Shown here: in pieces, positions 15,610-61,566 of the stretch
How positions within the stretch are numbered: the first letter of the stretch is position 1
Layout of the letters: each line of letters begins with the position of its first letter
Origin: an archaeon
Lineage (GTDB): Archaea > Iainarchaeota > Iainarchaeia > Iainarchaeales > 1-14-0-10-31-34
Assembly: GCA_043819075.1 (NCBI GenBank)
Contig: JBDRFE010000002.1
Coordinates: forward strand, 114 to 64,113
Length of the DNA: 64,000 nt
Direction: 5' to 3'
Position numbers and translations under genes: made by a program
The notes under the pieces: model-generated
Told to the model about the DNA's origin: nothing
Databases searched by the model: none
The model's input: the letters and a program-made list of their open reading frames with translations, nothing else

Positions 15610-15655
15610 ACAACAACAATATAAAAACCGTTTTATACATAATTAATGTGATGTT

Positions 15656-22873: not shown

Positions 22874-24046
22874 CTAATTGTTTAGGAAAAAGCCGTTGAC
22901 AAACAACACAGTGAAAACAGTTAACAGCAAAACAGAACAAAAAAACAAAATCTTATTAAACAAAGAATTTTTTGATGCAAGCAAAGCCACACTAAAATAC
23001 AAGGGAAACAAAAAACCGATGTATCTTGGAAGACCCTCCAGAGAATTAGTGGACAAATAAAAAAACAACAAAACAGACGGATAAACAACAAAACTCTGCC
23101 TTGCCTTTAAATGAATTAAAAACCAGATAAAAAACAATGCAAGAAAAACCCAAAAGTATACATAAAAGTTAAATAAGTGGAAAACATTATCATAACTCCA
23201 TCTGGTTAAAGTAGTAAAAACTGAAGTGAACTCTCTTTCACTCCAGTCAAACAAAGCTGTCTTGAATGCAAAGGCATTGCCAAACCTTAAATGCAGGAAC
23301 AGCATGAAAGACAGCAAACCAGCTGGAACCAATGCAAGAAAAGCAAGGTCTGGCTTAATTTTTTTCAGCAAAAGCCTTAGATTAAACAAATTAATGTTTT
23401 TGTAAGAACTTAAATTCAGCCCAAAATATTCTATCAGCAAAGGAACAAGGATTAATCCGCCTAAAGGCTTTGTTAAGGCAACAAGAAAACCAAAAACAGA
23501 TGCAGCAAGCCAGTTCTTTTTTAAAGCAAAATAAAAGCAAGCAATGGCTAAAAACAAAAACAAGCCTTCAGCGTAAATAACTGAAAAAAAGAAACTCAAA
23601 GGAGCAAAAGCAGTAAACAAAACAGTTTTTTTTGCAAGAGAATTACTGTAGCCTGCAAGAGAAATTAATTTATAAAACAGGAAAAGCGCAAGAAAAAAAC
23701 TTATGTTTGATATAAGGTAAGCCATTAATTTTGGGCTGCCAAAAAACACTGAAAAAATTTTTATAAGCAAAGGATACAAGGGAAAAAAAGCAACAGTAGA
23801 GAATTCTCCCGGAATAAAAGAATAGCCTTTTTCTACAATAGAAATATACCAGCCAGAATCCCAGGCAAAAAACAAGTCAAGCAAAGAATTAGGCTGAACA
23901 AAAAACTTTCCTTTCTGGAAAAAAAACAATGAAGCAAAGCCGACAAAAAAAATGAACAGCCGTGAAGCAAGGAAAATTAAAAAAATTTCTTTAAACAGAT
24001 TTTTCTCTTTTGAAACAAAACCCTGTAAATTCATGAAAAAACCCAA
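22874..24046 (-). CDS. polytopic membrane protein, possible GT-C-type glycosyltransferase (PMT/PIG-V-like)
   Basis: 390 aa with about 10 predicted TM segments and a YAEGLFLFL motif. Confidence 0.35.
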   Translation of the reverse strand: MGFFMNLQGFVSKEKNLFKEIFLIFLASRLFIFFVGFASLFFFQKGKFFVQPNSLLDLFFAWDSGWYISIVEKGYSFIPGEFSTVAFFPLYPLLIKIFSVFFGSPKLMAYLISNISFFLALFLFYKLISLAGYSNSLAKKTVLFTAFAPLSFFFSVIYAEGLFLFLAIACFYFALKKNWLAASVFGFLVALTKPLGGLILVPLLIEYFGLNLSSYKNINLFNLRLLLKKIKPDLAFLALVPAGLLSFMLFLHLRFGNAFAFKTALFDWSEREFTSVFTTLTRWSYDNVFHLFNFYVYFWVFLALFFIWFLIHLKARQSFVVYPSVLLFFYLSTNSLEGLPRYIGFLFPLYFSVALLASKNSLFNKILFFCSVLLLTVFTVLFVNGFFLNN

Positions 24047-24289
24047 AGATAATCAAAAAGAAACAAAACAGGTTAAAAAGAAAACCTGATGGCAGCCAAA
24101 AAAAACCAACAGTTATGTAGCCAATTACATACATAATTGTTGAATTTTTTGTATTTTTTGCTGCAAAAACTCCCCTAACCTGAAAACTGCTTTTAATGGC
24201 TTTAAATGCCTTAAAACAAGTGTTTAACAAAGTCTTGGCTGAAACTGGTTTAAAAAAATGCAATTTATTTGAAGTTTAAGGAATTCTTG

Positions 24290-24540
24290 TTTAATCAGGC
24301 GAATTTTTCGGGTTTAGTGGCTTTTCTTGTATGGCATTTGACTCAAACAGGCTTTGTTTTGCCCTTGTTTTTCTGGCCTGTTTTTTTCCGGTTTTTTGGC
24401 TGTTTTTTTGCTGTTTTCTGGTTAAGCGAATAAAGGAATTGTTTTTGTTTTTTCTCAGAATTTTTGCAAAATTTTTCCACAAAACCGTTTTTTTAGCCAC
24501 TTTGCAGCCATTGTTTTTTTGGGTTTTTTGAGCCATTCCC
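24290..24540 (+). repeat. phased oligo-T tracts (about 11-bp periodicity) - intrinsically curved DNA, candidate island boundary
   Basis: ggcctgTTTTTTTccggTTTTTTggctgTTTTTTTgctgTTTTctgg and further T5-T8 runs spaced about 10-11 bp apart. Non-coding. Confidence 0.5.
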
Positions 24541-24990
24541 GGAAACGCCTTAGTTGTATACATAACCCTTTGGCTTGCTGGTTCCCTCACCCAGCCCCGT
24601 TGTTTTTCACACCACCACCCCCTACTTCCACTAAAATTCAGTTTTGACGATTTCTGATAAAGTTCCCTCTATGAGATTCGGTATAATCTGTATTATGGCG
24701 CATCCTGAAAACAAAAAATGCCCTAAAATAAGGCAAGGAAAAGGCGAATCTAGGGCACACGCCAGCAGTATCGGCGATTTTAAGCAGTTTTTTAGTTTTT
24801 ATGCCTTAAAATCAGAAATTAACTTTGAATAGTTATTGTTGCGCCAGAGCCGTTTTTGGCTGGTTGGCAGAGCGATTAGCGGGACGCGGTTAGCGGCACA
24901 ACAACACCTTGGTTATGTAGAAGATTGAGTGGTTTTGGTTTTGGAAAACAAATATAAATTCAATTAAACCCTTGTTATTAAGTTGATTGT

Positions 24991-25422
24991 ATGCCTACAA
25001 GAATAAAATTTTCACTCAAAAAGTATGCTGCTGCCGTTTTCAAGCCAAGCAGAAAAACAATTAAAGCAGTTAAAGCCGGTTTAAAGAAACCTGGAACAAT
25101 TAAAAGGCGGGTGTCTAATGAAAACACAGCGAATTCAATGGCAATAAAAATTGGATTAGATGCGTTTGGAATTAAAGACCATGAAACAAGGACAAGAATT
25201 AAAAGAAAATTATCAGCCCATTTTGACAGAGTAAAGCTGATTCACCATAAGGGAAAAAACAGTTTAGAAAACCACAAAAAACTATCGGAATCGGAAAACC
25301 GTGCGAAAAGAGAAATAACAGGAATGCTGGGTGGCGCAAAAAACGCTTACAAGGCCACAATACTTGTCACCAGTGTTGAAGCAAAAAGGCACCTGATAAA
25401 AGCAAAATTAGATAAAAAATGA
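24991..25422 (+). CDS. hypothetical basic (K/R-rich) protein, possibly nucleic-acid binding
   Basis: 143-aa ORF with pI clearly high and no motif recognised. Confidence 0.4.
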   Translation: MPTRIKFSLKKYAAAVFKPSRKTIKAVKAGLKKPGTIKRRVSNENTANSMAIKIGLDAFGIKDHETRTRIKRKLSAHFDRVKLIHHKGKNSLENHKKLSESENRAKREITGMLGGAKNAYKATILVTSVEAKRHLIKAKLDKK

Positions 25423-25429: not shown

Positions 25430-25624
25430 TCAGTCTTCAAACTCAAAAATCTTTTCTATTGGTTCATTAAACACTTTAGCAATATCATAAGCTAATTTAA
25501 GGGAAGGATTATACTTTCCCTGCTCTAAAAAGACAATTGTTTCTCTCCTCACCTGCACGATTTTAGCTAATTGTTCTTGGGTTAAATTATATTTTGCCCT
25601 GAACTCTTTAATGCGGGTTTTCAT
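25430..25624 (-). CDS. XRE-family helix-turn-helix transcriptional regulator
   Basis: [39 protein letters not shown] is a classic Cro/C1 HTH. 64 aa. Confidence 0.8.
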
Positions 25625-27593: not shown

Positions 27594-28040
27594 CTATTCT
27601 CTTTGATAAGTTCCCATTAACTCGCCTTGGGCTAAAAGCCTTCCTTTCATTGCTTTCTCTAAATCTGTTTTAGTTGAGCCTTCTTTCAGGCTTAAATTCG
27701 AGTCTAATGCATAAACCTTGAAGTAATACTTGTGGGTTCCGCTTGGCGGGCAGGGGCCGTGAAATTCAAGGCTTGCTGCGCTATTTGTTCCTTGCACCCC
27801 GGGAACAGAGTTTTCTTGGATTGTTTTTGTTTTTCCTTCAACAGGAATATTCCATACAACCCAGTGCGTCCAAACCCCACCTGGCGCATCAGGGTCGTCT
27901 ACAATTAACGCAAGGCTTGCGGTTTTTTCCGGAATGCCTGAAATCATTATTTCAGGATTAAAGTCTGTTCCGTCACAAGAATATTTTGCCGGAATAGCTT
28001 TTCCTGAAGAAAAAGCATTAGTTGAAACTTTTAACTTCAT
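27594..28040 (-). CDS. phosphatidylethanolamine-binding protein (PEBP / YbhB-YbcL family)
   Basis: DPDAPGGVWTHWVVWNIP and YYFKVYALD match PEBP signatures. Probable start at MKLKVST, preceded by GGAGGG. Confidence 0.8.
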   Translation of the reverse strand: MKLKVSTNAFSSGKAIPAKYSCDGTDFNPEIMISGIPEKTASLALIVDDPDAPGGVWTHWVVWNIPVEGKTKTIQENSVPGVQGTNSAASLEFHGPCPPSGTHKYYFKVYALDSNLSLKEGSTKTDLEKAMKGRLLAQGELMGTYQRE

Positions 28041-28187
28041 TTTATCCCCCTCCTTGGTTTTGTGATTGCACACAGCCTGAAAGCAGGACAAAAGGCACAA
28101 AAAATTTTTTCATTACAATAAAGAACCGGATTCAAAGTTGTTTTAAGCACAAAAACACAGAAAATTATGTATAAAGTGGTTTTTGTT

Positions 28188-28652
28188 TTAGTTTAATACA
28201 AAAACAAAGTAATTCAGCACTGCGGCAAAACTCACCCACAAAATATACGGGATTAACAAATATGCTGCTCTTTTGTCAATTGAATAAAATTCTTTTATTG
28301 TTAATACAATGAAAACCCATAACAAAACTATTCCTGCCAGGCCAAGCACCGGGCTTCTTAAGCCAAAAAACAGAATTGACCACAAAGCATTCAATCCAAG
28401 CTGGATGTAAAAAAAATTAACCGCTTTATTATTTTCTTTTAATCCTTTTTCCCAGACCAAGAAAAAAGCTATTCCCATTAAAGTATACAAAATTAACCAG
28501 ACTGGCGCAAAAAGCCAGTTTGGCGGAGAAAAAAATGGTTTGTTCAGGAAAGCATACCATTCAGTTATTGCTGAAAAAGTGAAAACCGAACCAACAATTC
28601 CTGCCAGCTGGCACAAAACAATTGAAGCAAGCGCTTTGGTTATTTTGTTCAT
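28188..28652 (-). CDS. tspO: TspO/MBR family tryptophan-rich sensory protein
   Basis: WYAFLNKPFFSPPNWLFAPVWLILYTLMGIAFFLVW and five TM helices. Probable start at MNKITKA. Confidence 0.8.
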   Translation of the reverse strand: MNKITKALASIVLCQLAGIVGSVFTFSAITEWYAFLNKPFFSPPNWLFAPVWLILYTLMGIAFFLVWEKGLKENNKAVNFFYIQLGLNALWSILFFGLRSPVLGLAGIVLLWVFIVLTIKEFYSIDKRAAYLLIPYILWVSFAAVLNYFVFVLN

Positions 28653-28747
28653 CACTAATAATGTGTTCGAACTTTTATTTATTCTTTCACAAAACCCAGA
28701 GTTATGTATAAACAAAGCTTTTTTAATTTCAATCCCGTTTCTTTTCT

Positions 28748-29092
28748 ATGACTTCAGTTAATTTTGTGTTAGGGGTTTTGCTTGATATTGTTGTCTTGTT
28801 TTATGCTGCAAAATTTTTGGGGATTCCAGGAAGAACTTCTGTCAAGGCATTAACTGCCACGCTTGTTTCTGCTTTAATCGGCTTTTTCGTCGGAGATGTT
28901 TTAATCAGAATAATTTTTTCTCCTTTAATTTCTTTCCTGCTTTTGCTTGCTCCGTTAGTCTTAATCTCAATTATTTTTTTAAGGCTGTTTGTAATCAAAT
29001 TTGTTTATAAAATTGGTTTTGGCTCTGCTTTTGGTTTATGGCTTGTCTCCGCCGTAATTTCAGTTATTGTTTCTTTTTGGCTGCCTTTCTGA
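28748..29092 (+). CDS. small membrane protein (hypothetical)
   Basis: 114 aa, 3-4 TM segments. Confidence 0.4.
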   Translation: MTSVNFVLGVLLDIVVLFYAAKFLGIPGRTSVKALTATLVSALIGFFVGDVLIRIIFSPLISFLLLLAPLVLISIIFLRLFVIKFVYKIGFGSAFGLWLVSAVISVIVSFWLPF

Positions 29093-30069: not shown

Positions 30070-30939
30070 TTATATAAATTTTGTGTTTTTTCCTTTTTGT
30101 TCTGCAAACAAAAGCACGTCTCCGTAGTGCTTTCTTTTTTTTACTTTAAACCCTTTTGAAGACAAAAATTCAATCAAGTGCTCCGGCCTGTTTTTTCCCA
30201 CAAAATGTGCTTCCATTGAAATTCTTGTAATTTTTTCAAGAATTTTATCTGGCGCATTAAAAAGAATTTCATATTCTGCGCCTTCAGCATCCATTTTAAG
30301 CAAATCGCATTTTTCTAGTTTGTTTTCAGAGAAAACGTTTTCCAAGGAAATTGTATTGCATTCAATGAACCCCTTATTTTTCCCAAAAAGATTGCTTTTC
30401 CCAAAAAAAGAGTGCCCGCCTGTATTGTTTTCGCTTAAAAAAATCTTTTGTTTTCCGTTTTTTCCTGCAACAGCCTTGTTGAATGCAACAACCCTGTTTT
30501 TACGGTTATTTAATGCAAGATTTTTTTTAAGCAGTTCAAAGTTTTCCGGAACAGGCTCAAAAGCAAAAACTTTTCCCACTCTCCGGGAAATAAAAACAGA
30601 AAAAAAGCCTGCCTGCGCTCCGATGTCAAGCACAGCAGATTTGCTATCTAAAAAAATTTTGTCTGTTCTGTACTGGTCGGCTATTGCTGTTTCAACAAAA
30701 ATATCCCTGTCTTTTGTTTTTGTACGGGTAATGAATTTTGTGCCGTTTCTTAATTCAAAAATTATTTGTTTTTGGTTTGAAATGTTTTGTGAATTAAGCA
30801 GGTAATCTTTCCAGTTTTTTACTTCAAGGATTACTTTAAATGCATAATAAGCGTTAAGGCACTTGATTAAAACAGTATCCGCAATCTGCCTCAGCAAACG
30901 AAACACAAAAACAGGAATCCTCTTAAAATAACTGTTCAC
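30070..30939 (-). CDS. FkbM-family SAM-dependent methyltransferase
   Basis: VLDIGAQAGFFSVFISRRVGKVFAFEPVPENFELLKKNLALN matches the FkbM domain. Confidence 0.7.
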   Translation of the reverse strand: MNSYFKRIPVFVFRLLRQIADTVLIKCLNAYYAFKVILEVKNWKDYLLNSQNISNQKQIIFELRNGTKFITRTKTKDRDIFVETAIADQYRTDKIFLDSKSAVLDIGAQAGFFSVFISRRVGKVFAFEPVPENFELLKKNLALNNRKNRVVAFNKAVAGKNGKQKIFLSENNTGGHSFFGKSNLFGKNKGFIECNTISLENVFSENKLEKCDLLKMDAEGAEYEILFNAPDKILEKITRISMEAHFVGKNRPEHLIEFLSSKGFKVKKRKHYGDVLLFAEQKGKNTKFI

Positions 30940-31340: not shown

Positions 31341-31374
31341 AAAAACCCGTAGTTATGTATAAGCTTGTTTTTGG

Positions 31375-31743
31375 TTATTTGAATTCGTTTATGTTTGCTT
31401 TTATTGTGAGCCTGCCTGAGCTTGTTGCATTCAGCAAGGGGCCGCCAAAAGAATTTGAATTATTTCCCGCCAGAGAAACAACTAATTCTCCTTTATAACC
31501 CATGTTTCCTTTTTCAAAAAACACCCCGTGTACTGAAGTCAGCTTGAATTCCTCATCAAAATGCTTTCTCCTGAATGCCCCACCTATAAAAATATTCAGG
31601 TCAAAGTTTTTTATTCTTCCTTCAACACTCCTTATTGTGGCGCGCTGTATCTTGTTTTCTGCCAGCGCATTCTTTATTCCTGAAATCAATTCTTCCCCGT
31701 CTTCAAACTCCATTGCAATAATTTTGTTTTGTTCCATAAACAA
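31375..31743 (-). CDS. PPC (DUF296)-domain protein
   Basis: GELVVSLAGNNSNSFGGPLLNATSSGRLTIKANINEF resembles the DUF296 core. 122 aa. Confidence 0.35.
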   Translation of the reverse strand: MFMEQNKIIAMEFEDGEELISGIKNALAENKIQRATIRSVEGRIKNFDLNIFIGGAFRRKHFDEEFKLTSVHGVFFEKGNMGYKGELVVSLAGNNSNSFGGPLLNATSSGRLTIKANINEFK

Positions 31744-31850: not shown

Positions 31851-32711
31851 GTGCCCAAAGAACCCAATGCATTCACTGAAGAGCAAAAAATTGCCCTGCA
31901 GAGGACAAGAGAAGAATTAGTTATAAGTGGTTACTCCGAAAAAACAATTAAAATGTATTTATGCTACTTAGAAAATTTTTTTAGGATTGTTTCAAAACCA
32001 TTGAATGGCATTGCAAGAGAAGACATTGTGAAATACATTGCGTTGAAAAAAGAAAAAGACTCGCTTTCAAATTCATCCCTTTCCCTTATCCACGCTGCAT
32101 TAAAATTCTTTTTTGAAAAAATAATGAAAAACAAGGTATTAAATGAAATAATAATACCAAAAAAAGAAAAAAAACTTCCAAATGTGCTTACACAAAAAGA
32201 AATAAAAGCATTAATTAAGGCTGCGAGAGCCGGAAGGGACAGGACAATAATTGAATTCCTTTACTCCAGCGGGGTAAGAGTAAGTGAATGTTCTTCAATG
32301 AAAGTTGCAAGCCTTGAGTTAAATGAGGGAATTGCAAGAGTTAAAGGCGGGAAAGGAAAAAAAGACAGAATAATAATCCTTTCAAAAAAATGGATGCATA
32401 ATTTAAAAAAATATTTGAAAAGAAAAAAAATCCAGAGTGAATTCGTGTTCTCCAAGAAAAACGGCAAGCCAATCACCCCAGACACCATAGAACGGTTGGT
32501 GAAAAAATGCGCTGAAAAAGCAGGAATACAAAAACATGTCACCCCTCACTCACTCAGGCACAGTTTTGCCACACACTTGCTTGAGTCAGGGGAAAATATA
32601 AGGAAAATACAGGAACTGTTAGGCCACAGCAACCTGGCCACAACCCAGATTTATACTTTTGTTTCAACAGAAGAGCTCAAAAAAGTCCAGAGCCCTTTAG
32701 ACAGGCTTTGA
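31851..32711 (+). CDS. tyrosine recombinase, XerC/XerD (archaeal XerA)-type integrase
   Basis: C-terminal HSLRHSFATHLLESGENIRKIQELLGHSNLATTQIYT with the catalytic R..H..R..Y. An N-terminal SAM-like core-binding domain. Confidence 0.85.
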   Translation: MPKEPNAFTEEQKIALQRTREELVISGYSEKTIKMYLCYLENFFRIVSKPLNGIAREDIVKYIALKKEKDSLSNSSLSLIHAALKFFFEKIMKNKVLNEIIIPKKEKKLPNVLTQKEIKALIKAARAGRDRTIIEFLYSSGVRVSECSSMKVASLELNEGIARVKGGKGKKDRIIILSKKWMHNLKKYLKRKKIQSEFVFSKKNGKPITPDTIERLVKKCAEKAGIQKHVTPHSLRHSFATHLLESGENIRKIQELLGHSNLATTQIYTFVSTEELKKVQSPLDRL

Positions 32712-32986
32712 CACCCTGCAATTCCGGTAATAACCGCAAAATTCCAATAACAAACGGGTTTTGGCAAAAAGACAAAAAAACAAAAAAAATTATGTATATC
32801 TTAACCAAAAGAGGTTTGTGTGGTGTCTGCTTATAACATAAAAAAAAACCAGTTATGTATATTTGTGTTTTTTGATTTTTTTTAGCCAGCAAAACACTGA
32901 AAAACAAGGGTTTTTCACATAACAAACCCAAAAGTTTATATATATAAATGAAGTTATTATTTAATCAAAGTTTTTGAGGTGTTTTT

Positions 32987-33307
32987 GTGACCGTTAGATT
33001 GTCAAAACTATTTGGAATAGACATTTACACTGAGAACGCAGAATACAAGGGAAAAGTCTTTGATTTAGTTATTAATTTGGAAAAGGGAAGAATTGAAACA
33101 ATTACGACCGAACCATTGAAAGTTAAATCAAAACAGGAAGCAAAAAAAATAATTAAAGAAAAAAGCGTCCCTTATAGAAACGTTAAGTCAGCAAAAGATA
33201 TTCTGATAGTTAGAACCGGAAGAGTTGACATTGAAGAAGAAGAAGCAGAAGCTGTGGCAGCCAAGCCGCAAAAATCTTATTATTCTTCTTATGTCAGAAG
33301 AAGATAA
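32987..33307 (+). CDS. PRC-barrel domain protein
   Basis: LFGIDIYTENAEYKGKVFDLVINLEKGRIETI matches the PRC-barrel pattern. GTG start with GAGGTG upstream. Confidence 0.45.
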   Translation: MTVRLSKLFGIDIYTENAEYKGKVFDLVINLEKGRIETITTEPLKVKSKQEAKKIIKEKSVPYRNVKSAKDILIVRTGRVDIEEEEAEAVAAKPQKSYYSSYVRRR

Positions 33308-33494
33308 CTTTGTTTTTTTACAAGGTTATTTCTTCACTTTTTACCTCTAAACTTCTGTTTATATTCCTGCTTTATAAATAATGCTTTAAATCAGTTATTT
33401 TTAGCAAACATTTATATTTAATTAGAGTATAATATATATACATAAAAACATGTTAGTTATTAATATAACACATTACTGGAAGTAAGGGGTCTCT

Positions 33495-34082
33495 GTGAAA
33501 GGGTATTTTGTGCAGTATAAATTTATTCTGCCTAAAGACATAAAACATTCTTCTTATACCTATCAGAAGCTTTTCAGGGCAATTTATGGTTATTCCCAGC
33601 AGGTTTCAAAATCAAACGGAAAAACCTATGTCTATCACAGGCCCGGAGTTCTCTCAGATACGCCTTTCATAAAGCATGGAAAGAATTGTGTTGTAATCCC
33701 ACAAGAAAAATTTTCTGAGTTAATAAATTTTTTCAAGACAGGAAAAAACCCAAGCCACTCCTGGGCAGTTAAAGGCGACTGGAAAGCAGTCTATTATTTA
33801 AATGAAAAAGAGATTCACGAACCAGATATAATTAAGTCTCTTGAAAATCTTATTGACAGGACTTACATCATTAATCCATTAAAAGAGCACGGGTCAATCC
33901 TGCCTGAAATGGAAAAATTAAGGAAACAGGTTGTTGAAAAGAAAAATCCAGACAGCGGGTTTTCCCAGACTGTTTTGAATGAATCAAAGAAAATAGTTAA
34001 CTCACAGTGGTTCAAGGATGTTTATTCAAAGTCTGATAAGCTAAAACACTTCCACTCACTGCACAGCTTTCTCAAAGGCTAA
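33495..34082 (+). CDS. hypothetical protein
   Basis: 195 aa, GTG start with AAGGGG upstream. No motif recognised. Confidence 0.4.
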   Translation: MKGYFVQYKFILPKDIKHSSYTYQKLFRAIYGYSQQVSKSNGKTYVYHRPGVLSDTPFIKHGKNCVVIPQEKFSELINFFKTGKNPSHSWAVKGDWKAVYYLNEKEIHEPDIIKSLENLIDRTYIINPLKEHGSILPEMEKLRKQVVEKKNPDSGFSQTVLNESKKIVNSQWFKDVYSKSDKLKHFHSLHSFLKG

Positions 34083-34484
34083 TAATTTTTCTTCTTCTTT
34101 TATTTTTTCCTTGATTTTTATTATTAAATCCTTTTTTCTCCATTTTCTTTTTCCGCCCACGCTGGTGGTTTCCAACAGGCCGACATCAACTAAAGTCTTA
34201 ATATATGGGTAAAGGCTTCTGTCATTTTTGTAATCTATAAGAAATAATTCCTGGATTCTCCTTTTTATTTCATCCATTGGAACCCATTCGTCAAAGCTAA
34301 TAACTGAAAGGATGTGGTGTGCCTGGGTATTTTCAATTAAATTTATGTAATCCCATAAACTATAAATCCCAAAAGAACTTTCTTTTTCTTCAGTCTCGTA
34401 AATTGTTTCAGATTTTTTTTCTGTTTTTTTCTCTGAAAAAACCGAAAAAATTTTGTTTAAAAATTCTTTTAACACAACAATCAA
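34056..34484 (-). CDS. hypothetical protein, possible winged-helix regulator
   Basis: 142 aa. The C-terminal LYPYIKTLVDVGLLETTSVGGKRKWRK is wHTH-like. Confidence 0.4.
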   Translation of the reverse strand: MIVVLKEFLNKIFSVFSEKKTEKKSETIYETEEKESSFGIYSLWDYINLIENTQAHHILSVISFDEWVPMDEIKRRIQELFLIDYKNDRSLYPYIKTLVDVGLLETTSVGGKRKWRKKDLIIKIKEKIKEEEKLLAFEKAVQ

Positions 34485-34485: not shown

Positions 34486-35096
34486 ATTATAATTACCTTA
34501 ACTACTTAAAAACTTAACCGTTTTTACCTTTTTTACTGGTAATTACTCGTTTTTTTGTGTTTTTTTAGTTAAATCAGGCACTTATCGTGCCTTAAAACGC
34601 CAAATAAAGCCATTTTGTCTAAAAGTGAGTTTTTGTGTTGTTTGCTAGTTGGTGTGCTGTACACTAATTTTATCGCGAGTTTGTTTTGTTGTTTTATAAG
34701 TGAGTTTGTTTTTTGGTTGTTTTTCGGTTTGTTGAGTTGTGCTTTTCAATGCATGAATAAGTATTTTTAGCTTTGGCTGTCTTATGAGTCCTTTTTTTGC
34801 TTTTTGTGTTTAGAATTAGCTGTTTTTGAGTGTTTTTTTAGTAGCGGGGGAAGGATTTGAACCTTCGACCTTCGGGTTATGAGCCCGACGGGCACTCCTG
34901 GCTGCCCTACCCCGCTGACTTTTTTTTTAGGTTTAAAGCTTTTTTATCGCTTTTTTAGTTCTTTTAACCTTTTTTTTGCTTTTTTTGGCGGCTCTTTCGT
35001 GTTTTTTTACTTTAAAACCAGTTTAACCTTTTTTTTTGGTTTTTTCTTTTTGTTAGTTGTTTTCTTTTATTTGTCCAACTTTTTGTGTTTTTTTTG
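34486..35096 (+). repeat. T-rich non-coding region with phased T-tracts flanking the tRNAi gene
   Basis: Multiple T6-T9 runs at about 10-12 bp spacing on the + strand on both sides of the tRNA. Only low-complexity ORFs. Confidence 0.45.
34842..34916 (-). tRNA. initiator tRNA-Met (CAT), archaeal type
   Basis: Minus-strand sequence AGCGGGG TA GGGC..GCCC G TCGGG CTCATAA CCCGA AGGTC GAAGG TTCAAAT CCTTC CCCCGCT A. It has an A1:U72 pair and three G-C pairs in the anticodon stem, close to the archaeal tRNAi consensus. No encoded CCA. Confidence 0.85.
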
Positions 35097-38112: not shown

Positions 38113-39048
38113 ATGCAACCTGCCGACTTTCTAAAAACTAATTATGGCTTGATTCCTAAAAGCCAGCTTAAGGAAATTAAAATTCCAGTTGCACCGAAAG
38201 CCCGGCTCCTTAATTACTTGCCAGATTTGTTTGTTGAAGAAGTTGATGAAAAATCTTCTTATTTAAGCTGTCTTTTTGATGGCAAATACTTTGATATAAA
38301 CAAAGATTTTTTGAGGAAAGATTTGAATAAAATTTATTCAAAATTCGTGTTTGTAAAAGCAAAAGGGGCGGCACCAGTAAAGTTGCCAAAAATCTTGAAC
38401 CCTGAACTAGCTTACTTTATTGGCTATTTTATTGGCGACGGCGGTTTAAAGGATATTAAAAAAACATACGCCAAAACCAAAACATTTGAACATAAAATTA
38501 TTGTTGGCGACGAATTTCTTTTGCAGGCTGAAAGGATTCAAAAACTTTTTTTTGGTTTGTTTGGAGCCGAGTTTCCTATCAGGGATGAAAGAATCAGAAA
38601 AAGAGAAAAACTTTATTATCTGAATCCTACAAACAAAGTCATTTATCGCTTTTTGACGCAGGTTTTTGATATTCCTTCAGGCAAAAAACATGTTTTGTTG
38701 AAAATTCCAAAGTTAATTCTGGCTGCTCCGTTAGAAATTAAGAAGTGGTTTGCACGAGGGGTGTTTGATGCCGATGGTGAAACAAGAGCAGTTGAAAAAG
38801 GATTGAACTCCCAGCCAAGAATAAAGCTTAGAATGAAATCACACAAATTTATACAGTCGATGAAACTGCTTTTGAAGGAAGTTTTTGGGGTCAGCGTGAA
38901 TGGTCCTTATTTTGATTCAAACAAGCAATCAAGTTATATTCAAATAGAAAGACACGGGGATATCAAAAAACTTAATAATGAAACCTTGTTCATTCATCCA
39001 GTAAAACAATGGCGGCTTAATAAAATGGTTTTGCTTATGAAAACATAA
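38113..39048 (+). CDS. free-standing double-motif LAGLIDADG endonuclease-like protein
   Basis: Two dodecapeptide motifs, LAYFIGYFIGDGG and KKWFARGVFDADGE, about 110 aa apart. 311 aa. Confidence 0.6.
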   Translation: MQPADFLKTNYGLIPKSQLKEIKIPVAPKARLLNYLPDLFVEEVDEKSSYLSCLFDGKYFDINKDFLRKDLNKIYSKFVFVKAKGAAPVKLPKILNPELAYFIGYFIGDGGLKDIKKTYAKTKTFEHKIIVGDEFLLQAERIQKLFFGLFGAEFPIRDERIRKREKLYYLNPTNKVIYRFLTQVFDIPSGKKHVLLKIPKLILAAPLEIKKWFARGVFDADGETRAVEKGLNSQPRIKLRMKSHKFIQSMKLLLKEVFGVSVNGPYFDSNKQSSYIQIERHGDIKKLNNETLFIHPVKQWRLNKMVLLMKT

Positions 39049-39987: not shown

Positions 39988-41286
39988 ATGAGTTCAGTTT
40001 TTGTTATTGGCGCGCAGTTCGGGGATGAAGGAAAAGGAAAATTAGTTGACTGTTTGGCTGAAAAATCTGATTGTGTTGTTAGATTCCAAGGAGGAAACAA
40101 CGCAGGCCACACTGTTGTGGTAAACGAAAACATTTTCAAGCTGCATTTGCTTCCTTCTGGAGTGATAAGGAATAAGCGTTCTTTGATTGGAGCAGGAGTT
40201 TCATTGGATCCAAGAGTGTTAAAAGAAGAAATTAATGAACTCAAAGAAAAAGGAATTGAAGTGAATTTAGGCATTGACCCGCGATGCCAGATAATAATGC
40301 CTTGGCATAACATAATTGACATTGGCAAAGAAGAAGCTTTGAAAGAAAAAAACATTGGCACCACGAGAAGAGGGGTTGGCCCTTGTTATGCTGACCGTGC
40401 TTCAAGAATCGGAATAAGGTTTGATGACTTGATTGACGAGAAAAGGCTGAAAGAAAAACTGTCTTTTAACTTTTTTTATTACCAGGAATTATGCGAGCTT
40501 GTTCTTGGAAAAAAATTTGATTTTACTGTAGAAGAAGTGTTTGAAGAATACTCTGTTCTTGGAGCTGAATTCGAAAAATTCCTGTCTGATGTTTCAATTG
40601 AAGTAAATTTGCTTTTAGACAAAAAAAAGAAGGTTTTGTTTGAGGGTGCACAGGGAACAATGCTTGACAATGATTTTGGCACTTATCCTTTTGTCACTTC
40701 ATCCCATCCAATGTCTGGTGCAGCAACAATTGGTGTAGGAATTTCTCCTAAAAAAATTGAGTATGTTGTTGGTGTAGTAAAAGCTTATACTACTAGGGTT
40801 GGTTCTGGCCCTTTTCCAACTGAATTGTTTGAAGATGAAGCAGATTTTTTGAGAAACGCGGGAAATGAGTTCGGAACAACGACCGGAAGGGCAAGGCGTG
40901 TTGGCTGGCTTGATTTGCCTATGCTGCGTTTGTCTCACAGGCTGAACGGTTTTGATGAAATTGCAATAACAAAGTTAGATGTTTTAAGCGGGTTGAAAAC
41001 TCTTTTGGTTGCAGAATCTTATTCAATTGACGGGAAAAAAGTCTTTGAATTTCCTTATGCAAATCATTTGGTTGAAAAAGCAGAGCCAAATTACACTGAA
41101 TTAAAAGGCTTTACTTTTGAAGAAAAGGAAAGGGAAAAATTAAGGAAAAACGGTTTTACCGCAATGCCATCTAATGCAAAAAAATACTTATCTTTTATTG
41201 AAAAACAGCTGAAAGTGCCGGTTAAAACAGTTTCTTTTGGAGCAGAAAGAAATGATACTGTAACAAAAGGAAAATTACTCTGCTAA
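39988..41286 (+). CDS. purA: adenylosuccinate synthetase
   Basis: VIGAQFGDEGKGKLVD P-loop and GGNNAGHTVV. Start taken at the internal M (MSSVFVIGAQ) because the upstream extension is non-protein-like. Confidence 0.9.
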   Translation: MSSVFVIGAQFGDEGKGKLVDCLAEKSDCVVRFQGGNNAGHTVVVNENIFKLHLLPSGVIRNKRSLIGAGVSLDPRVLKEEINELKEKGIEVNLGIDPRCQIIMPWHNIIDIGKEEALKEKNIGTTRRGVGPCYADRASRIGIRFDDLIDEKRLKEKLSFNFFYYQELCELVLGKKFDFTVEEVFEEYSVLGAEFEKFLSDVSIEVNLLLDKKKKVLFEGAQGTMLDNDFGTYPFVTSSHPMSGAATIGVGISPKKIEYVVGVVKAYTTRVGSGPFPTELFEDEADFLRNAGNEFGTTTGRARRVGWLDLPMLRLSHRLNGFDEIAITKLDVLSGLKTLLVAESYSIDGKKVFEFPYANHLVEKAEPNYTELKGFTFEEKEREKLRKNGFTAMPSNAKKYLSFIEKQLKVPVKTVSFGAERNDTVTKGKLLC

Positions 41287-42610
41287 TTCAGCCGCTTTTC
41301 CAAGATAATTTTCAGGCTTTAGTTTCATTAGCTTGTTTTTTTCTTTTTCGCTTAAAGAGCTTTTTTTGATGAATTCTTTCAGTTCATCCAAAGTTAATTT
41401 TTTCCCTCTTGAAAACTCTTTTAATTCTTCGTAAGCTTTTTTGTTTCCTTCTTTTCTCATTACAGTCTGAATTGCTTCAGTTAATACTTCTGGATGAGTT
41501 TTTAATTCTTCAAGCATTTTTTCTTTGCTTGTTTGGGTTCTTTCAAGGCCTTTAATGCACATTTTTATTCCAAGCAATGAATGTCCAAAAGCCGTTCCAT
41601 AATTTCTTTTAATTGTTGAATCGCTTAAATCTCTCTGCATTCTGGTTTTCTGCAGCCTTGAACTCAGAAAAACAAGCAAATTGTTTGCAAGCAATAAGTT
41701 GCCTTCACTGTTTTCAAACTGAATCGGATTAATTTTGTGCGGCATAATTGAACTGCCTGTTTCACTTGCCATTTTTTTCTGTGAAAGGTATTCTTTGCTG
41801 ATGTAAAACCATAAATCAGTGTCAAGGTTGATTACAATATTGTTGAGCAAAACCATTTCATTGAATATTCGTGAAATGCTGTCATGCGGAATAATCTGTG
41901 TTGTCAGTTTCTTTGATTCAAACCCAAGGCTTGAAACAAACTCTTTGCTTAATTTAATCCAGTTTTTTTCAGGGAAAGCAGAATGCATTGAATTAAAGTT
42001 TCCTACAGCAGAATTAAGTTTTCCCGGCAACCTCATTTTTTTTTAATACCAATAAACTTTCCTCTATTCTTGAACCAAAAACTGCAATCTCTTTCCCAAA
42101 GGTTGTCGGTGATGCAGGCTGGCCGTGTGTATGGCTTAACATTGCGGTGTTTTTTTCTTTGTGGGAAATTTCTTTGAGTTTTTTTAGCAGCAAAAAACAA
42201 CCAGTTATGTATAACTCTAATCCTTTTTCTATTTGTTTCGAGTTCGCCAGATTATTTATGTCTTCTGATGTTAACCCGAAATGAACAAAGCTTTCAGCGT
42301 TTTTCAGAGAATTTTTCTGCATTTTTTTTCTTATAAAATATTCTATTGCTTTGACATCGTGGTTTGTCGTTTTTTCTGTTGCTTTTATTTCTTTGAAGTC
42401 TTTTTCACTGAATTTTTTGTAAATGTTTTCCAAAAAAGTTTTTTCTTTTTCACTGAACTTTCTCGCAATCCCTTTTTTTGACAAAAACAACAGGTATTTT
42501 ATTTCAATTTCTGCCCTGAATTTTTGCAGTGCGTATTCAGAGAAAATTTCCTTTAATTCTTTTGTCAAATCTGCATATCTTCCGTCTAAAGGGGAAATTG
42601 CTTTTTTCAT
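41275..42610 (-). pseudogene. purB: adenylosuccinate lyase (purB) split by a +1 frameshift in an A9 homopolymer (coding strand) at about 42036-42044
   Basis: N-terminal ORF 42014-42610 (SPLDGRYA..., HFGLTSEDINNLA, THGQPASPTTFGKE). C-terminal ORF 41275-42036 (GKLNSAVGNFN..., GSSIMPHKINP lyase signature). Removing one A from the run gives the continuous ...LLVLKKMRLPGKLNSAVGNFN. The cause could be a sequencing error, a real pseudogene or programmed slippage. Confidence 0.8.
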
Positions 42611-46087: not shown

Positions 46088-47617
46088 TTGATTGCAGTAA
46101 TTAATTTTGGTGGCCAGTACTGCCATTTAATTGCAAGAAAAATAAGGGAATTAGGCGTTAAAGCAGAAGTTTTTCCTAACACTATTACCGCAGAAGAACT
46201 TGTTTCAATTAAGCCTGCCGGAATAATCCTTTCAGGCGGGCCTTCAAGCGTTAACCAATCTAATGCCCCGAAAATGGATAAAAAAATTCTTGAATTAAAT
46301 ATTCCTGTTTTAGGAATCTGTTATGGGTTGCAGTTAATTGCTGTTTTTTTAGGCGGAAAGGTAAAGCCAGGCCAAACAAGAGAATACGGAAAAAACATTA
46401 TTTTAGTTAAAGGAAATGACCCTTTGCTTAAAGGCTTGAAAAAAGAGCAGGTGTGGCTGTCGCATTTTGATATAGTTGAAAAAATTCCTGAAGGATTCAA
46501 AATTTCTTCTTCAACTAAAACCTGCCCTGTTTCTTCAATGTTTTCTTCTTCAAAAAAATTTTTTGGATTACAGTTCCATCCTGAAGTGCATCACACCCCG
46601 AAAGGAAAAAAAATCCTGTCAAATTTCTTGAAACAATGCAAGGCAAAAAAAGACTGGAAAATCAGTTCTGTGATAAAAGAAGTTGAAAGCCAGATTAAGG
46701 CTAAAGCAGGAAAAGAGAAAGTGATTATGGGTGTTTCAGGCGGAGTCGATTCTTTGGTTGCATCAGCTTTGTTGCATAAAACAATTCCAGGGCAGTTGTT
46801 TTGTGTTTTTGTTGACAATGGCTTGATGAGGAAAAACGAAAAGCAGTACATTGAATCCTTGTATAAGAAAATGGGTTTCAGGCATTTTTTTGCAGTTGAT
46901 GCATCAAAAGAATTTGTTTCTGCTTTGAAAGGAGTTTCTGATCCGGAAGAAAAAAGAAAAATTATCGGCCACACGTTTATTTCTGTTTTTGAGACAAAAG
47001 CAAAAGAATTAGAGCAGTCTTTTGGAAAAATTTCTTTTTTAGGCCAGGGAACAATTTACCCTGACAGGATTGAGTCAGCTGAACCATCTAAAACTGCTTC
47101 AAAAATTAAATCCCACCATAATTTGTCTTTGCCTGAAACAATGAAGTTAAGTTTGATTGAGCCTTTAAGGGAATTCTATAAAGACGAAGTAAGGCAGATT
47201 GGAAGAACGCTTAAAATTCCTTTAGAGTTTCTTGACAGGCATCCTTTTCCAGGCCCTGGCCTTGGAGTAAGGATTTTAGGCGAGGTATCAGAAGAAAAAC
47301 TTGTTATTTTAAGGCAGGTTGATTTTATTTTTATTGAAGAATTAAAGAAAAACAATTTTTACAACAAAACCTGGCAGGCGTTTGCAGTGTTATTTCCAAT
47401 TAAGGCAGTCGGCGTCAAAGGAGATGAAAGAAGTTATTCGTATGTTGTCTGCCTGCGTGCAGTTAATTCAGTTGACGGAATGACAGCTGACTGGACTAAA
47501 ATCCCGAATGATTTGCTGGAAAAAATTTCTTCAAGGATTTTGAATGAAGTGCCTGAAGTTGGAAGGGTTTTGTATGACATTTCCCAGAAGCCGCCTGCAA
47601 CAATTGAATTTGAGTGA
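46088..47617 (+). CDS. guaA: GMP synthase (glutamine-hydrolysing), fused GATase + ATP-PPase (bacterial-type single polypeptide)
   Basis: IAVINFGGQY GATase N-terminus, SGGVDS PP-loop and a C-terminal dimerisation domain. TTG start. Confidence 0.9.
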   Translation: MIAVINFGGQYCHLIARKIRELGVKAEVFPNTITAEELVSIKPAGIILSGGPSSVNQSNAPKMDKKILELNIPVLGICYGLQLIAVFLGGKVKPGQTREYGKNIILVKGNDPLLKGLKKEQVWLSHFDIVEKIPEGFKISSSTKTCPVSSMFSSSKKFFGLQFHPEVHHTPKGKKILSNFLKQCKAKKDWKISSVIKEVESQIKAKAGKEKVIMGVSGGVDSLVASALLHKTIPGQLFCVFVDNGLMRKNEKQYIESLYKKMGFRHFFAVDASKEFVSALKGVSDPEEKRKIIGHTFISVFETKAKELEQSFGKISFLGQGTIYPDRIESAEPSKTASKIKSHHNLSLPETMKLSLIEPLREFYKDEVRQIGRTLKIPLEFLDRHPFPGPGLGVRILGEVSEEKLVILRQVDFIFIEELKKNNFYNKTWQAFAVLFPIKAVGVKGDERSYSYVVCLRAVNSVDGMTADWTKIPNDLLEKISSRILNEVPEVGRVLYDISQKPPATIEFE

Positions 47618-49216
47618 TTATTTTATTTTTTTTAATTTTTTTATTACTTTTTCTTTTCCTATTGCGGTAATTAACTGCCCTAATTTCGGCCCTCTTTCTT
47701 TTTTAATTAAAAACAAATAAAATTCTTTGAATAATTCCCCTGCAGGAATATTTTTTTCTTTCCCTATTTCATAGATTTTCTGCTGGATTTCTTCTGGGTC
47801 GCTTGTTTTTTCAAGCACTCTAATTGTTTCAGAAAAGATTTCTTTCATTTTGTCTGGGGCTTCATGAATTTCTTCTGAGAACACAATCCTGTTTTCTTCC
47901 GGCGCAAATTTTTCCAGCCAGTTTTTTGAAAGCTTAATTCTTTCCTTTAATGCCTCTGCTTCTTTTTTTGTTTCAGTGCCTTTATTCATTTCATTTAATT
48001 TTTCAATTAATTCTTTTTCCTGGTAAAACCCGTTCAAGAAAGCGCATAAAGCGTAGTCTGCTTTCAATGAAATTAATTCTCTGTTATTAACTTTTACTGA
48101 ATCAAAATATTTTTTGTTTTTCAGCTGTTCAATTTCATTCCCTGTTTTTGTTTCAGCGCTTTCAGTTACTCTATCTAATTCAAGTTCAAGCAATGGAACG
48201 TCTTTCCATTCAAAGCTTCTTGTCTTCATTAATCTTTTCATATACAAATATTTTAGTGTTTCTGGCCTTGCAACTTTCAGCCAGTCAGCCGGATAAACCA
48301 CGTTACCTAAAGAAGCGCTCATTTTTGTTCCGCCAATTACAATGTGTTCATAAAAAATAGGCTCTGGGTGCGGAAAATCCAGTATTTTTTCGCATATTTC
48401 TGCGTTAACCCAGAAAGCAGAGTTTTTGCTTTCATATTCTTTTCCTGCTCCTTCTGAACAGACTTTCCAGTTCTTCCATTGCGCTGCCCACTCGCTTTTC
48501 CACACTAATTTTCCGTTTGCTTTCTTTAAATCTGATATTCCTTCAAAACCGCATCCTTTTGCAGTGAATTTTTCAAAAGCATAATCAATGCATTTGTAAT
48601 TGATTTTTGTGCCATCCACTTTTGTTATTGCAGTTGTCTGCAGATTCCCGCATTTTTCGCATATTGGCTTCCAGACACTCCAGTTTTTTCCTGTTTTGCT
48701 TCCCTGGACTTCTTCAATTATTTTTTTTACTTTTTCAGCGTTTTTCACTAATTCTATTGCGCTGTCGGTAAAGCTTCCTTTTTTGTATTCTTTTCTCATT
48801 GAATAAACTTCTGGTTCAATTAAGAGAAAGTCTTTGAATACTTTAAGGAATTCTTCTGTGAAGTGCTCTGCATAGCTTTTATGGCATCCGAATGGATCCG
48901 GAACATCTGACACAGGAAAGCCGATGAATTCTTCAAATTTTTTTGGAACCCCTTTAGGTATTTTCCTTAATGGATCCATGTCTTCTGTTACATAAATGAA
49001 TTTTGTTTTGAATCCTTTTTCTTCTAAAGCCCTTGCTTCTGCTTCGCCTCTGATGATGTCTGACAATCTTCCGATATGCAGCACCCCGGATAAAGAAGAA
49101 GAGCTTTTTACTGTCCAAGTTTTTTCTTCTGGAATTTTTTTGTCAATGAAATGAAATTTTTTCCTGTTAATTATTTTTTCTGCTATTTCGTCTGCCCAGA
49201 AAACCCATTCAGCCAT
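47618..49216 (-). CDS. lysK: lysyl-tRNA synthetase, class I (archaeal type)
   Basis: N-terminal WADEIAEKI...SGVLHIGRLSD (HIGH-like) and KMSASLGN (KMSKS). About 530 aa, typical of LysRS-I. Confidence 0.75.
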   Translation of the reverse strand: MAEWVFWADEIAEKIINRKKFHFIDKKIPEEKTWTVKSSSSLSGVLHIGRLSDIIRGEAEARALEEKGFKTKFIYVTEDMDPLRKIPKGVPKKFEEFIGFPVSDVPDPFGCHKSYAEHFTEEFLKVFKDFLLIEPEVYSMRKEYKKGSFTDSAIELVKNAEKVKKIIEEVQGSKTGKNWSVWKPICEKCGNLQTTAITKVDGTKINYKCIDYAFEKFTAKGCGFEGISDLKKANGKLVWKSEWAAQWKNWKVCSEGAGKEYESKNSAFWVNAEICEKILDFPHPEPIFYEHIVIGGTKMSASLGNVVYPADWLKVARPETLKYLYMKRLMKTRSFEWKDVPLLELELDRVTESAETKTGNEIEQLKNKKYFDSVKVNNRELISLKADYALCAFLNGFYQEKELIEKLNEMNKGTETKKEAEALKERIKLSKNWLEKFAPEENRIVFSEEIHEAPDKMKEIFSETIRVLEKTSDPEEIQQKIYEIGKEKNIPAGELFKEFYLFLIKKERGPKLGQLITAIGKEKVIKKLKKIK

Positions 49217-49292
49217 TAATTCACCTGAATAAAACTAGTTGCAAATAGTATTTAATTGTTAATTTGTTTTTTTGTGTGTTGAAAGCTTTCAG

Positions 49293-50036: not shown

Positions 50037-50106
50037 TTAATCCCCTTTTTTTTATTATAAGGCTTTTTGTTTAATAAAAACTTTTGTGTTTGCCTTTTTT
50101 TAACCT

Positions 50107-51927: not shown

Positions 51928-52048
51928 TCATAATATTTTTCATTGAATACTGCTTTAATTTTATTCTTTGCCCATTTTTTCTCTGGTTTTAAGGCAGTTT
52001 AAGGTAGTTTTATTTACTTGTTTGTTTTTTTATTGTTATGGTGTTTTA

Positions 52049-52783: not shown

Positions 52784-52818
52784 AAAAGAAAAATAAAAAA
52801 ATAGGGATGAAAATGCAG

Positions 52819-53271: not shown

Positions 53272-53348
53272 TTTTTCCCTCCTTTTTTTTGCAAAATAAA
53301 ACAATTATGCTATCTATTTAGTCGGTTTTCATTTATATTCTTTTCTCA

Positions 53349-55237: not shown

Positions 55238-55247
55238 TTATTTCACT

Positions 55248-61556: not shown

Positions 61557-61566
61557 TTAATTCAGC

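Follow-up and report, generated by a model that had tools for sequence, protein, structure and literature searches.

A conserved motif array at xerA in Diapherotrites and its possible role as an operator-like site

Why does a short AT-rich motif recur between the genes that surround a tyrosine recombinase gene, and which protein might read it? This question is raised by a 64,000-nucleotide stretch of contig JBDRFE010000002.1 (the window, to which all coordinates refer unless a related locus is named), which belongs to a metagenome-assembled genome of the Diapherotrites (Iainarchaeota, DPANN). The window has a G+C content of ~35% and carries an archaeal marker, the Archaea_SRP RNA (signal recognition particle), at 63103-63379; for two of its proteins, the nearest homologues bear the labels Candidatus Diapherotrites or Iainarchaeum. 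The motif, AGTTATGTATA, surrounds xerA (31851-32711, +), the gene for an archaeal Xer tyrosine recombinase, which lies at the centre of the array. An earlier note, made from the letters of the window alone, had proposed that the motif acts as an island-specific promoter/terminator module or as an operator. Diapherotrites and other DPANN archaea are uncultivated and, to our knowledge, no information exists on gene regulation, replication landmarks or chromosome segregation in these organisms. Here, we describe the motif as a local array that is conserved among relatives, and we tentatively favour the view that it represents the operator-like, core-promoter-proximal site of a lineage-specific factor, which would run a local regulon around xerA.

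A motif clustered around xerA in the window and in its relatives

The motif is not randomly distributed in the window. With at most one mismatch, AGTTATGTATA is found nine times, compared with 0.48 matches expected from dinucleotide shuffles, and none of 100 shuffles gave nine. Eight of the nine copies that had been listed before are real; the ninth, at 53303-53314 (AATTATGCTATC), does not match the conserved TTATGTA core and is treated as a chance occurrence. Exact copies are present on the + strand at 28700-28710, 31351-31361, 32851-32861 and 42203-42213, and one-mismatch or shortened copies at 24111-24120 (AGTTATGTAG), 24557-24567 (-), 24911-24920 (GGTTATGTAG) and 32788-32798. Further copies, absent from the earlier list, were detected at 28163-28173 (+), 33437-33445 (-), 24129-24136 (-) and 15634-15644 (-). 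A position weight matrix (PWM), which was anchored on TTATGT and trained on relatives only, finds 12 matches in the window, compared with 2.4 in Markov-simulated sequence, and eight of these 12 are located within 24.5-33.5 kb. Between 24 and 34.5 kb the motif also ranks first among its letter permutations (7 matches vs. 0.41), and the rest of the window shows no enrichment (3 matches vs. a permutation mean of 1.56).

Relatives of the window were retrieved via the recombinase, which yielded 80 metagenome loci with 45-82% identity on contigs of up to 1.24 Mb; the counts given below refer to 57 de-duplicated loci, all fetched through xerA. Within -1.6 to +1.9 kb of xerA in these loci, TTATGTATA ranks first among 504 letter permutations, with 94 matches compared with a mean of 6.5. 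The farther parts of the same loci (2-10 kb) are weakly enriched (rank 29, 27 matches vs. 10.3). As a control, six Diapherotrites loci with a total of 118 kb were fetched via the unrelated FlaI gene (55248-56981 in the window). They contain a single motif match vs. a permutation mean of 2.98, and one of them sits 10-30 kb from xerA on the same contig. Because the motif is enriched near xerA and not in the 118-kb control, it forms a local array and is not a genome-wide signal. A uniform distribution, which had been considered in the earlier note, is thereby ruled out. In the clade loci, intergenic DNA carries the motif at 18 times the density of coding DNA, and the arrays in Diapherotrites comprise ~5-12 copies clustered within ~10 kb of xerA. 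A pattern scan of GTDB genomes gave, among the matches listed, mostly chance occurrences in bacteria, and the archaeal matches pointed to Iainarchaeota; several of the Iainarchaeota matches listed were purB codons (L130), the xerA neighbourhood (L145) or uninformative.

It had also been considered that the motif is simply the standard B recognition element (BRE)/TATA sequence of every promoter. TTTAAA or TTTATATA is carried by the upstream regions of tRNA and SRP RNA genes, of the PRC-barrel gene downstream of xerA and of most protein-coding genes; the use of these elements by the tRNA, SRP RNA and PRC promoters excludes this idea. The single match in the control DNA and the lack of enrichment outside 24-34.5 kb likewise reject a general BRE/TATA element. 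The promoter of the PRC-barrel gene, AAAAGTTTATATATATAAA with its TATA at 32935-32948, is perfectly conserved, separate from the motif and accompanied by a GAGGTG Shine-Dalgarno sequence.

The genes around the array belong largely to a conserved neighbourhood. Across the relatives, xerA is invariably followed by the PRC-barrel gene (32987-33307, +, GTG start), by geneX, which encodes a Diapherotrites-specific protein (33495-34082, +, GTG start), by a gene for a conserved small protein with the appearance of a winged helix-turn-helix (wHTH) protein (34056-34484, -), by tRNA-Met (34841-34916, -) and, downstream of it, by the genes for TFE, Trm56 and SerRS. The content to the left of xerA is variable, yet SprT-like, PCC, FkbM and TspO genes recur in the relatives, with a distance between the SprT-like gene and xerA of 1.7-8 kb. 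In the window, they encode a SprT-like/phage metallopeptidase (30966-31340, -, start TTG 31340 or GTG 31337), a PCC-domain protein (31375-31737, -, stop codon at 31375), an FkbM methyltransferase (30070-30939, -) and TspO (28188-28652, -, start ATG 28652). The region had been described as an accessory block with an island-specific motif. This does not hold, because the order SprT-like/PCC/xerA/PRC/geneX/wHTH is conserved clade-wide and the motif occupies orthologous positions in dozens of relatives; the block is thus partly a conserved neighbourhood. In nearly all loci with at least 53% identity, xerA is followed by a second element, which we call the box, by one or two motif copies and by the PRC gene. 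In a footprint of the xerA-PRC spacer across four genomes, conservation is limited to the box, two motif copies and the PRC promoter. The two copies stay 63 bp apart in this footprint, and the intervening sequence varies freely.

The conserved unit is the asymmetric sequence TTATGTA(T/G)A. The AGTTAT/ATAACT palindrome described previously is not conserved, and instead of a dyad AGTTAT-GT-ATAACT for a dimeric protein, half-sites occur as phased direct repeats or as inverted repeats with a 16-bp offset. The upstream A-run and the downstream T-run are real tendencies in 117 related sites (A 55-65% at positions -16 to -5; T 50-55% at +8 to +20), and the half-site is usually preceded by an A-tract at 4-7 bp and followed by a T-tract at 5-8 bp. 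The reading on the minus strand, TATACATAA followed by oligo-T into the next gene, is indeed the dominant orientation: TATACATAA-N4-oligoT runs with the genes at a ratio of 9:1 in tandem intergenic regions, and T-runs of at least 5 begin 4-5 bp past the core in gene direction. The G is always present in the motif, TTATGTAG and CTACATAA variants are common, and about half of the copies read TTTATACA, which is one mismatch away from TTTATATA. When the nine copies were aligned with 35-bp flanks, only TTATGTA and compositional A/T runs were kept. The copies share nothing beyond ~35 bp and so do not represent a miniature inverted-repeat transposable element or a long dispersed repeat. A phage or mobile-element origin was also rejected: two patterns searched against IMG/VR gave 32 and 35 single-copy matches, which corresponds to chance level.

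Arrangement of the sites and a possible regulator

Neighbouring copies in the same orientation are spaced by 51-53 bp (8 cases), 60-64 bp (19 cases) or 72-74 bp (6 cases), and these clusters around 52, 63 and 73 bp equal 5, 6 and 7 helical turns. Inverted copies, TTATGTA-N9-TACATAA, are offset by 16 bp in 14 of 15 cases and by 17 bp in the remaining one. The variation of the spacing by whole turns, together with the unconserved intervening sequence, indicates that a protein recognises the element in the form of double-stranded DNA and that the element reflects neither an RNA nor a composition effect.

The position of the sites relative to genes is also conserved. Upstream of the PRC gene, at least one copy is present in 38 and at least two are present in 25 of 43 unique regions, always in the same orientation, and the proximal copy is located ~100-140 nt before the start codon. 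In the window, the direct pair in the xerA-PRC spacer consists of copy 1 (AATTATGTATA, 32788-32798, +) and copy 2 (A9-CC-AGTTATGTATA-N6-T6, 32851-32861, +), the latter 125 nt before the GTG codon of PRC; the copies are 63 bp apart, rather than 60 bp as had been claimed. The spacer between PRC and geneX contains TACATAA in 35 of 36 unique cases and the full inverted pair in 13; the site follows a TTTAAAT element at an average distance of 5 nt and precedes geneX by 50-66 nt. The corresponding copy in the window (33437-33445, -; the + strand reads TATACATAA) is found 49 nt before the geneX GTG codon and is preceded by the TATA-like CATTTATATTTAAT at 33409-33422. Judged by its sequence, it is a half-decayed remnant of the inverted pair TTATGTA-N9-TACATAA of the clade.

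Left of xerA, the SprT-like gene provides the most regular example: the copy ends 21-23 nt before the ATG codon in five relatives (L188, L189, L190, L193 and L277), and the site is retained where the upstream gene encodes YbjQ rather than a PCC-domain protein. The exact copy at 31351-31361 (+) in the window is placed between the PCC stop codon and the SprT-like start. The distance from the end of its core to the start codon is 10 nt for TTG 31340 and 13 nt for GTG 31337, and the 25 nt stated previously are inaccurate. For the PEBP gene, a copy is located 21 nt before the start in L277, where the upstream gene encodes a cupredoxin instead of TspO. In the window, the copy at 28163-28173 (+, AATTATGTATA) lies 14 nt past the TspO stop codon and ~49 nt before the ATG (~28113) of a signal peptide preceding PEBP (27594-28040, -). 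This lipoprotein-type signal peptide (MKKFFVPFVLLSGC...), encoded from ~28113 (-), is in another frame than the PEBP open reading frame (ORF; 27594-28040/28100), which suggests a frameshift at the run GGAGGGGGA in the region 28040-28115. On the other side of TspO, the exact copy 28700-28710 (+) occupies the divergent intergenic region 28653-28747, 47 nt from the TspO ATG and 37 nt from a membrane-protein ORF (28748-29092). Finally, an inverted pair (AGTTATGTAG-CCAAT-TACATACATAAT, 24111-24137, with A8 and T6 flanks) is found 76 nt upstream of the gene for a GT-C-like (PIG-V-like) glycosyltransferase (22874-24034, -, start ATG 24034). Elsewhere, core-to-start distances range from 11 to >500 nt, and in 11 of 54 cases the copies follow the upstream stop codon at 3-24 nt.

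The sites stay with the 5' ends of genes whatever lies upstream, and the inverted pair is located by a TATA-like element; both fit a control site of the operator or core-promoter type. Features known from operators are also found, namely orthologous, promoter-proximal conservation and helically phased or inverted repeats. A pure terminator role is excluded for the copy in the divergent region, because no gene 3' end is present at 28700-28710, and it is further opposed by sites that keep to the downstream gene when the upstream gene differs. Of the earlier proposal, a promoter/terminator module or an operator, the non-random intergenic element stands and the operator class is still the best description, and the island-specific nature and the pure terminator role have to be dropped.

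In the operator-like reading, TTATGTA(T/G)A would be the recognition half-site of a sequence-specific DNA-binding protein of the Diapherotrites/Iainarchaeota, with one monomer bound to each half-site. Direct pairs separated by 5, 6 or 7 turns might be bound cooperatively on one helix face, and the inverted pair with its 16-bp offset in the promoter region of geneX might be bound back-to-back. The factor would co-regulate xerA-proximal genes, most likely by occluding or replacing TBP/TFB, and this set would include the PRC-barrel cell-division-type gene, geneX and the genes for the SprT-like peptidase, PEBP, TspO and the GT-C protein. A role in the cell division of archaea has recently been demonstrated for the PRC-barrel family (bioRxiv 10.1101/2023.03.28.534520). 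What the sequences show is non-random occurrence, conservation at orthologous positions, clustering in one neighbourhood, helical phasing and the placement of the sites relative to genes; the role of the bound factor as a transcription regulator, its identity and its effect as repressor or activator are inferred.

Three conserved neighbours are candidates for the motif-binding protein: the wHTH-like protein, XerA and the geneX product. The wHTH-like protein is conserved in 32 loci, and its profile gave a weak, non-significant match to the haloarchaeal wHTH protein RosR in the PDB (E = 0.5). XerA is conserved at 53-82% identity in 61 related loci and contains the Pfam Phage_integrase domain and a SAM-like N-terminal domain. 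It scores 273 bits against the NCBIfam equivalog NF040815 (recomb_XerA_Arch; cut-off 220), and integron-integrase models remain below their cut-offs; these matches and the conserved synteny mark the recombinase as a housekeeping XerA rather than an island integrase. The geneX family comprises 381 proteins that are found only in Diapherotrites and share many invariant aromatic and basic residues. Its AlphaFold model (predicted local distance difference test score 88.8) displays a ferredoxin/RRM-like N-terminal domain and a helical C-terminal domain; comparison with the PDB gave no significant fold match (weak RRM/ferredoxin-like, TM ~0.15), and the profile matches nothing in PDB sequences. The XRE-type HTH regulator encoded at 25430-25624 (-), which had been suggested as binder, has a homologue in none of 15 related loci and therefore cannot be the cognate protein of a clade-wide motif.

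Several observations weigh against the operator-like reading. Many copies are located just past the upstream stop codon and carry T-runs, which would also fit a component of a terminator or insulator. The PRC pair is found 100-200 nt upstream, in opposite orientation to the other sites and above a separate canonical promoter, and no single simple repression geometry fits all sites as a result. The SprT-like start is only 10-13 nt away from the core in the window, compared with 21-23 nt in the relatives, and the genes flanked by the sites are functionally mixed. In addition, all 57 loci were fetched via xerA and share ancestry, so that sites near xerA are mostly orthologous and their counts measure conservation, not independent events. 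A simple ORF script supplied the gene calls in most loci.

Accompanying elements and alternative readings

The box that follows xerA has the clade consensus CCCC-N3-4-AyTTCCrsTAaT. Box 1 (CACCCTGCAATTCCGGTAAT, 32712-32731, +) abuts the xerA stop codon and box 2, its inverted partner (33472-33494, -), abuts the geneX start codon, so that the PRC gene is bracketed by the two. A third box is present at 24618-24637 (+), ~50 nt from the motif copy 24557-24567. The box element also occurs in the related loci L188-L247, and its pattern gave no match in the 118 kb of control DNA. An invertible DNA switch between the boxes was rejected, as PRC and xerA point in the same direction in each of the ~45 loci. 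The boxes were also rejected as tRNA-derived att sites, because a box does not regularly follow the conserved tRNA-Met.

The third box is part of an ORF-free segment of 400-800 bp, which is bounded by motif copies in the window (24137-24912) and in relatives (L194 5398-5790, L208 2380-2801, L215 4302-4694 and others) and is homologous among distant relatives, with 72% identity across three of them. In the window, this ORF-poor, A/T-tract-rich segment has the inverted pair 24111-24137 at its left edge and a weak copy (GGTTATGTAG, 24911-24920, +, PWM score 14.9) at its right edge, 70 nt before an ORF at 24991-25422. A further copy, which reads GGTTATGTATA on the minus strand, lies within it (24557-24567, -). 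Runs of A5+ or T5+ recur every 10-11 bp, a sequence pattern that suggests intrinsically curved or straightened DNA. No RNA gene was found in the interval that separates paired copies or within the ORF-free segment: Rfam matches were limited to tRNAs and the SRP RNA, and the sequence between the pairs is not conserved. For the ORF-free segment, an RNA gene is unlikely because there are too many T5+ runs for read-through transcription.

Two copies lie outside the cluster. The exact copy 42203-42213 (+) is located inside the N-terminal purB ORF, where the minus-strand codons read L-Y-I-T-G-C-F; the peptide ELYITGCF given in the earlier note is confirmed. The LYIT..CF codons are also present in purB of the relatives L001, L130 and L277, and this copy is probably a coding coincidence held by conserved codons rather than a member of the array. 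The purB gene itself is split into two overlapping minus-strand ORFs (41275-42036 and 42014-42610; 253 and 198 amino acids). It stops at the same place in L001 (73% identity) and is intact with 446 amino acids in L130 and L277, so that, instead of a sequencing error, a genuine split or frameshift specific to the lineage is possible. The second copy, at 15634-15644 (-), is isolated, has no A-run, lies 11 nt before the ATG of an ORF (15656-16174) and is possibly due to chance.

On a larger scale, genes are mostly on the + strand at 1-22000 and all on the - strand at 47600-63000, and they thus converge on the xerA region; the AT skew changes its sign at ~26-34 kb. Converging genes and a flip of the AT skew are expected near a replication terminus, a pattern that is confounded with transcription direction. 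Two further genes of the window were noted. A 606-amino acid ORF (50107-51927, -) is syntenic with a RelA/SpoT-type gene of relatives, which encodes a 608-amino acid protein with the bacterial RelA/SpoT architecture (HD_4, RelA_SpoT, TGS, ACT) next to triose-phosphate isomerase (L268 10404-12230, L269 15072-16901). Directly after the tRNA-Lys and tRNA-Leu genes, a 311-amino acid ORF with a LAGLIDADG_3 domain (38113-39048, +) could be a free-standing homing-endonuclease-like gene.

The main alternative to an operator-like site, possible if doubtful, is that the motif represents an arm bound by XerA and that the cluster marks the dimer-resolution or terminus region, with a degenerate dif and non-recombining Xer sites that organise the chromosome. 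By analogy, the sites might resemble the XerD-binding sites (XDS) that unload SMC in Bacillus, or the A-tract-rich boundary DNA around dif in Thermococcus. The centring of the array on a XerA equivalog and its confinement to ~10 kb around xerA agree with this idea. TTATGTATAAR shares 8 of 11 positions, including the first six, with the XerD arm of E. coli (TTATGTTAAAT), and 8-9 of 11 with the P. abyssi arm TTATATCTAAA as published (PMC2958812), a likeness that is partly due to AT-rich composition. In haloarchaea, a dif-like site sits upstream of the operon that contains xerA, and archaeal dif lies within A-tract-rich boundary DNA (PMC11840125); in the loci studied here, motif copies border conserved segments that are free of ORFs and carry A/T tracts phased at 10-11 bp, and the genes of the window converge on 24-47 kb in a terminus-like manner. 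The canonical structure, an 11-bp arm, a 6-8-bp spacer and an 11-bp arm with TAA-N6-8-TTA, is however absent from every locus, and a search for dif as rc(arm)-N5-8-arm in all clade loci gave only degenerate A-rich left arms. The conserved inverted pair, which can be written as TTATGTATAA-TAT-TAATACATAA, has its TTAT ends outward (10-3-10 or 8-7-8) and is ~5 bp shorter than dif. Moreover, site orientation follows the local genes and start-codon distances are fixed, neither of which is expected of Xer or XDS sites. A polarity switch at xerA, as for FtsK-orienting polar sequences (KOPS), was rejected, because forward orientation dominates on both sides and is accounted for by gene direction. A wider version, doubtful to the point of being unlikely, would combine the motif array with the inverted CCCC-N3-ACTTCCACTAAT boxes and the segment of phased A/T tracts into a new Diapherotrites chromosome-organising locus, either XerA-associated and dif/XDS-like or terminus/centromere-like, that is coupled to the PRC-barrel gene. 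In that case XerA may occupy the sites, or a partner specific to the lineage may do so, for instance the wHTH protein or the geneX product.

That the motif is a compact promoter/terminator module, in which TATACATAA serves as variant TATA for a leaderless mRNA starting ~22 nt downstream and the flanking oligo-T terminates upstream or antisense transcripts, appears distinctly unlikely. The core-to-start distance of 21-23 nt (the SprT-like gene in five genomes, PEBP in L277) would place the 10-mer at -32 to -23, the canonical position of the archaeal TATA box, and about half of the copies differ from TTTATATA by the single mismatch of TTTATACA; T-runs of at least 5 at 4-5 bp past the core and copies shortly after stop codons (the 11 of 54 above) would suit the terminator part. 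A constant G:C pair and frequent CTACATAA variants, however, fit TBP binding poorly, the genome's strong promoters use TTTAAA or TTTATATA, and PRC and geneX have separate canonical TATA-like elements beside the sites. Start-codon distances vary from 11 to >500 nt, neither TATA boxes nor terminators are characterised by pairs phased by whole turns, and 118 kb of ordinary Diapherotrites genes hold one match, fewer than the permutation mean. We consider it very unlikely that the copies are recombination sites of a cassette system or of integrative mobile elements exploiting Xer (IMEX), at which the tyrosine recombinase inserted or exchanged accessory genes. The gene content between copies does vary (PEBP next to TspO in the window and next to cupredoxin in L277; SprT-like 1.7-8 kb from xerA), TspO is bracketed by the copies at 28163 and 28700, and every strong copy left of xerA in the window lies on the + strand, irrespective of gene orientation. 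Across the loci, 16 forward and 5 reverse copies lie left of xerA; this strand bias is accounted for by gene orientation, as the minus strand carries most of the neighbouring genes. A two-armed core is absent from all copies, flanks do not align beyond ~35 bp, the would-be att copies are non-identical, the recombinase is a housekeeping XerA orthologue in strict synteny, and the scans of viral contigs gave only single chance matches. Integron attC sites, which are imperfect palindromes of 57-141 bp, were rejected as well: the repeat unit measures ~35 bp, its flanks are unaligned and the recombinase exceeds a cut-off only as XerA equivalog. The least probable of the readings considered here is a replication-origin or centromere-like array, in which origin recognition box (ORB)-like inverted boxes, phased repeats and A/T-tract DNA would mark oriC or a partition site. 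On the opposite strand, the box reads ATTAGTGGAAGT-N3-GGGGT and is loosely similar to one half of an archaeal ORB, with which it shares TTCC/GGAA and the G-string (PMC1904270). The boxes form an inverted pair that has no counterpart in the control DNA, and phased repeats accompany a non-coding segment of putatively curved DNA. Within ±10 kb, however, neither the window nor either of two annotated relatives has a gene for Orc1/Cdc6, ParA/ParB or SMC. The boxes are separated by 520-1100 bp and enclose the protein-coding PRC gene, the genes point towards the region instead of away from it, and the motif is unlike ORB.

Meaning and comparison with known systems

The motif represents a clade-wide cis-element that is concentrated at xerA and at a PRC-barrel gene, and its helical phasing points to a protein that reads DNA. 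Three small conserved neighbour proteins and a defined 9-11-bp site provide a concrete entry point. If the motif is an operator, it would define the first local regulon in this lineage. If the sites are bound by XerA, they would show where the dif/terminus region lies and carry the XDS/boundary concept over to DPANN archaea. If the region is a chromosome-organising locus, dimer resolution, chromosome folding and the expression of a division gene would be coordinated from a single site.

Compared with dif and with the XerD-binding XDS of B. subtilis, the motif is likewise placed beside a XerA orthologue, resembles the 11-mer Xer arms (TTATRT..AA) and occurs in several copies clustered in A-tract-rich DNA, as around archaeal dif (PMC11840125). 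It differs in lacking the 11-6-11 inverted-arm core, in the tail-to-tail arrangement of its inverted pair and in following gene orientation and promoter distances. With BRE/TATA, it shares the AT-rich and quasi-symmetric sequence, the position at -32 to -23 from the start codon of two gene families, the A-rich upstream flank and a T-rich downstream flank that is similar to a proximal promoter element. In contrast to BRE/TATA, the motif has a constant G and CTACATAA variants, is restricted to few genes near xerA and differs from the genome's own TATA element, TTTAAA or TTTATATA.

The comparison with ORB and mini-ORB, the binding sites of Orc1/Cdc6, concerns the box and not the motif. Both contain TTCC..(G)GAA followed by a G-string and both form an asymmetric inverted pair, but the box has no internal TTCCAnTGGAA dyad, its pair is 0.5-1.1 kb apart around a gene and no orc1/cdc6 is nearby.

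The motif also resembles the operators of archaeal transcription factors, such as those of MDR1, Phr, TrmB/TrmBL1, Lrp-type regulators and NrpR, and we know of none among these operators that TTATGTA(T/G)A would match. The motif differs from them in its A- and T-tract flanks, in its frequent position right after the preceding stop codon and in its confinement to one neighbourhood of ~10 kb. As in these operators, a short half-site is used as inverted or direct repeat, either over or just downstream of TATA/BRE or as phased upstream pairs, at orthologous promoters and near a conserved wHTH-like gene.

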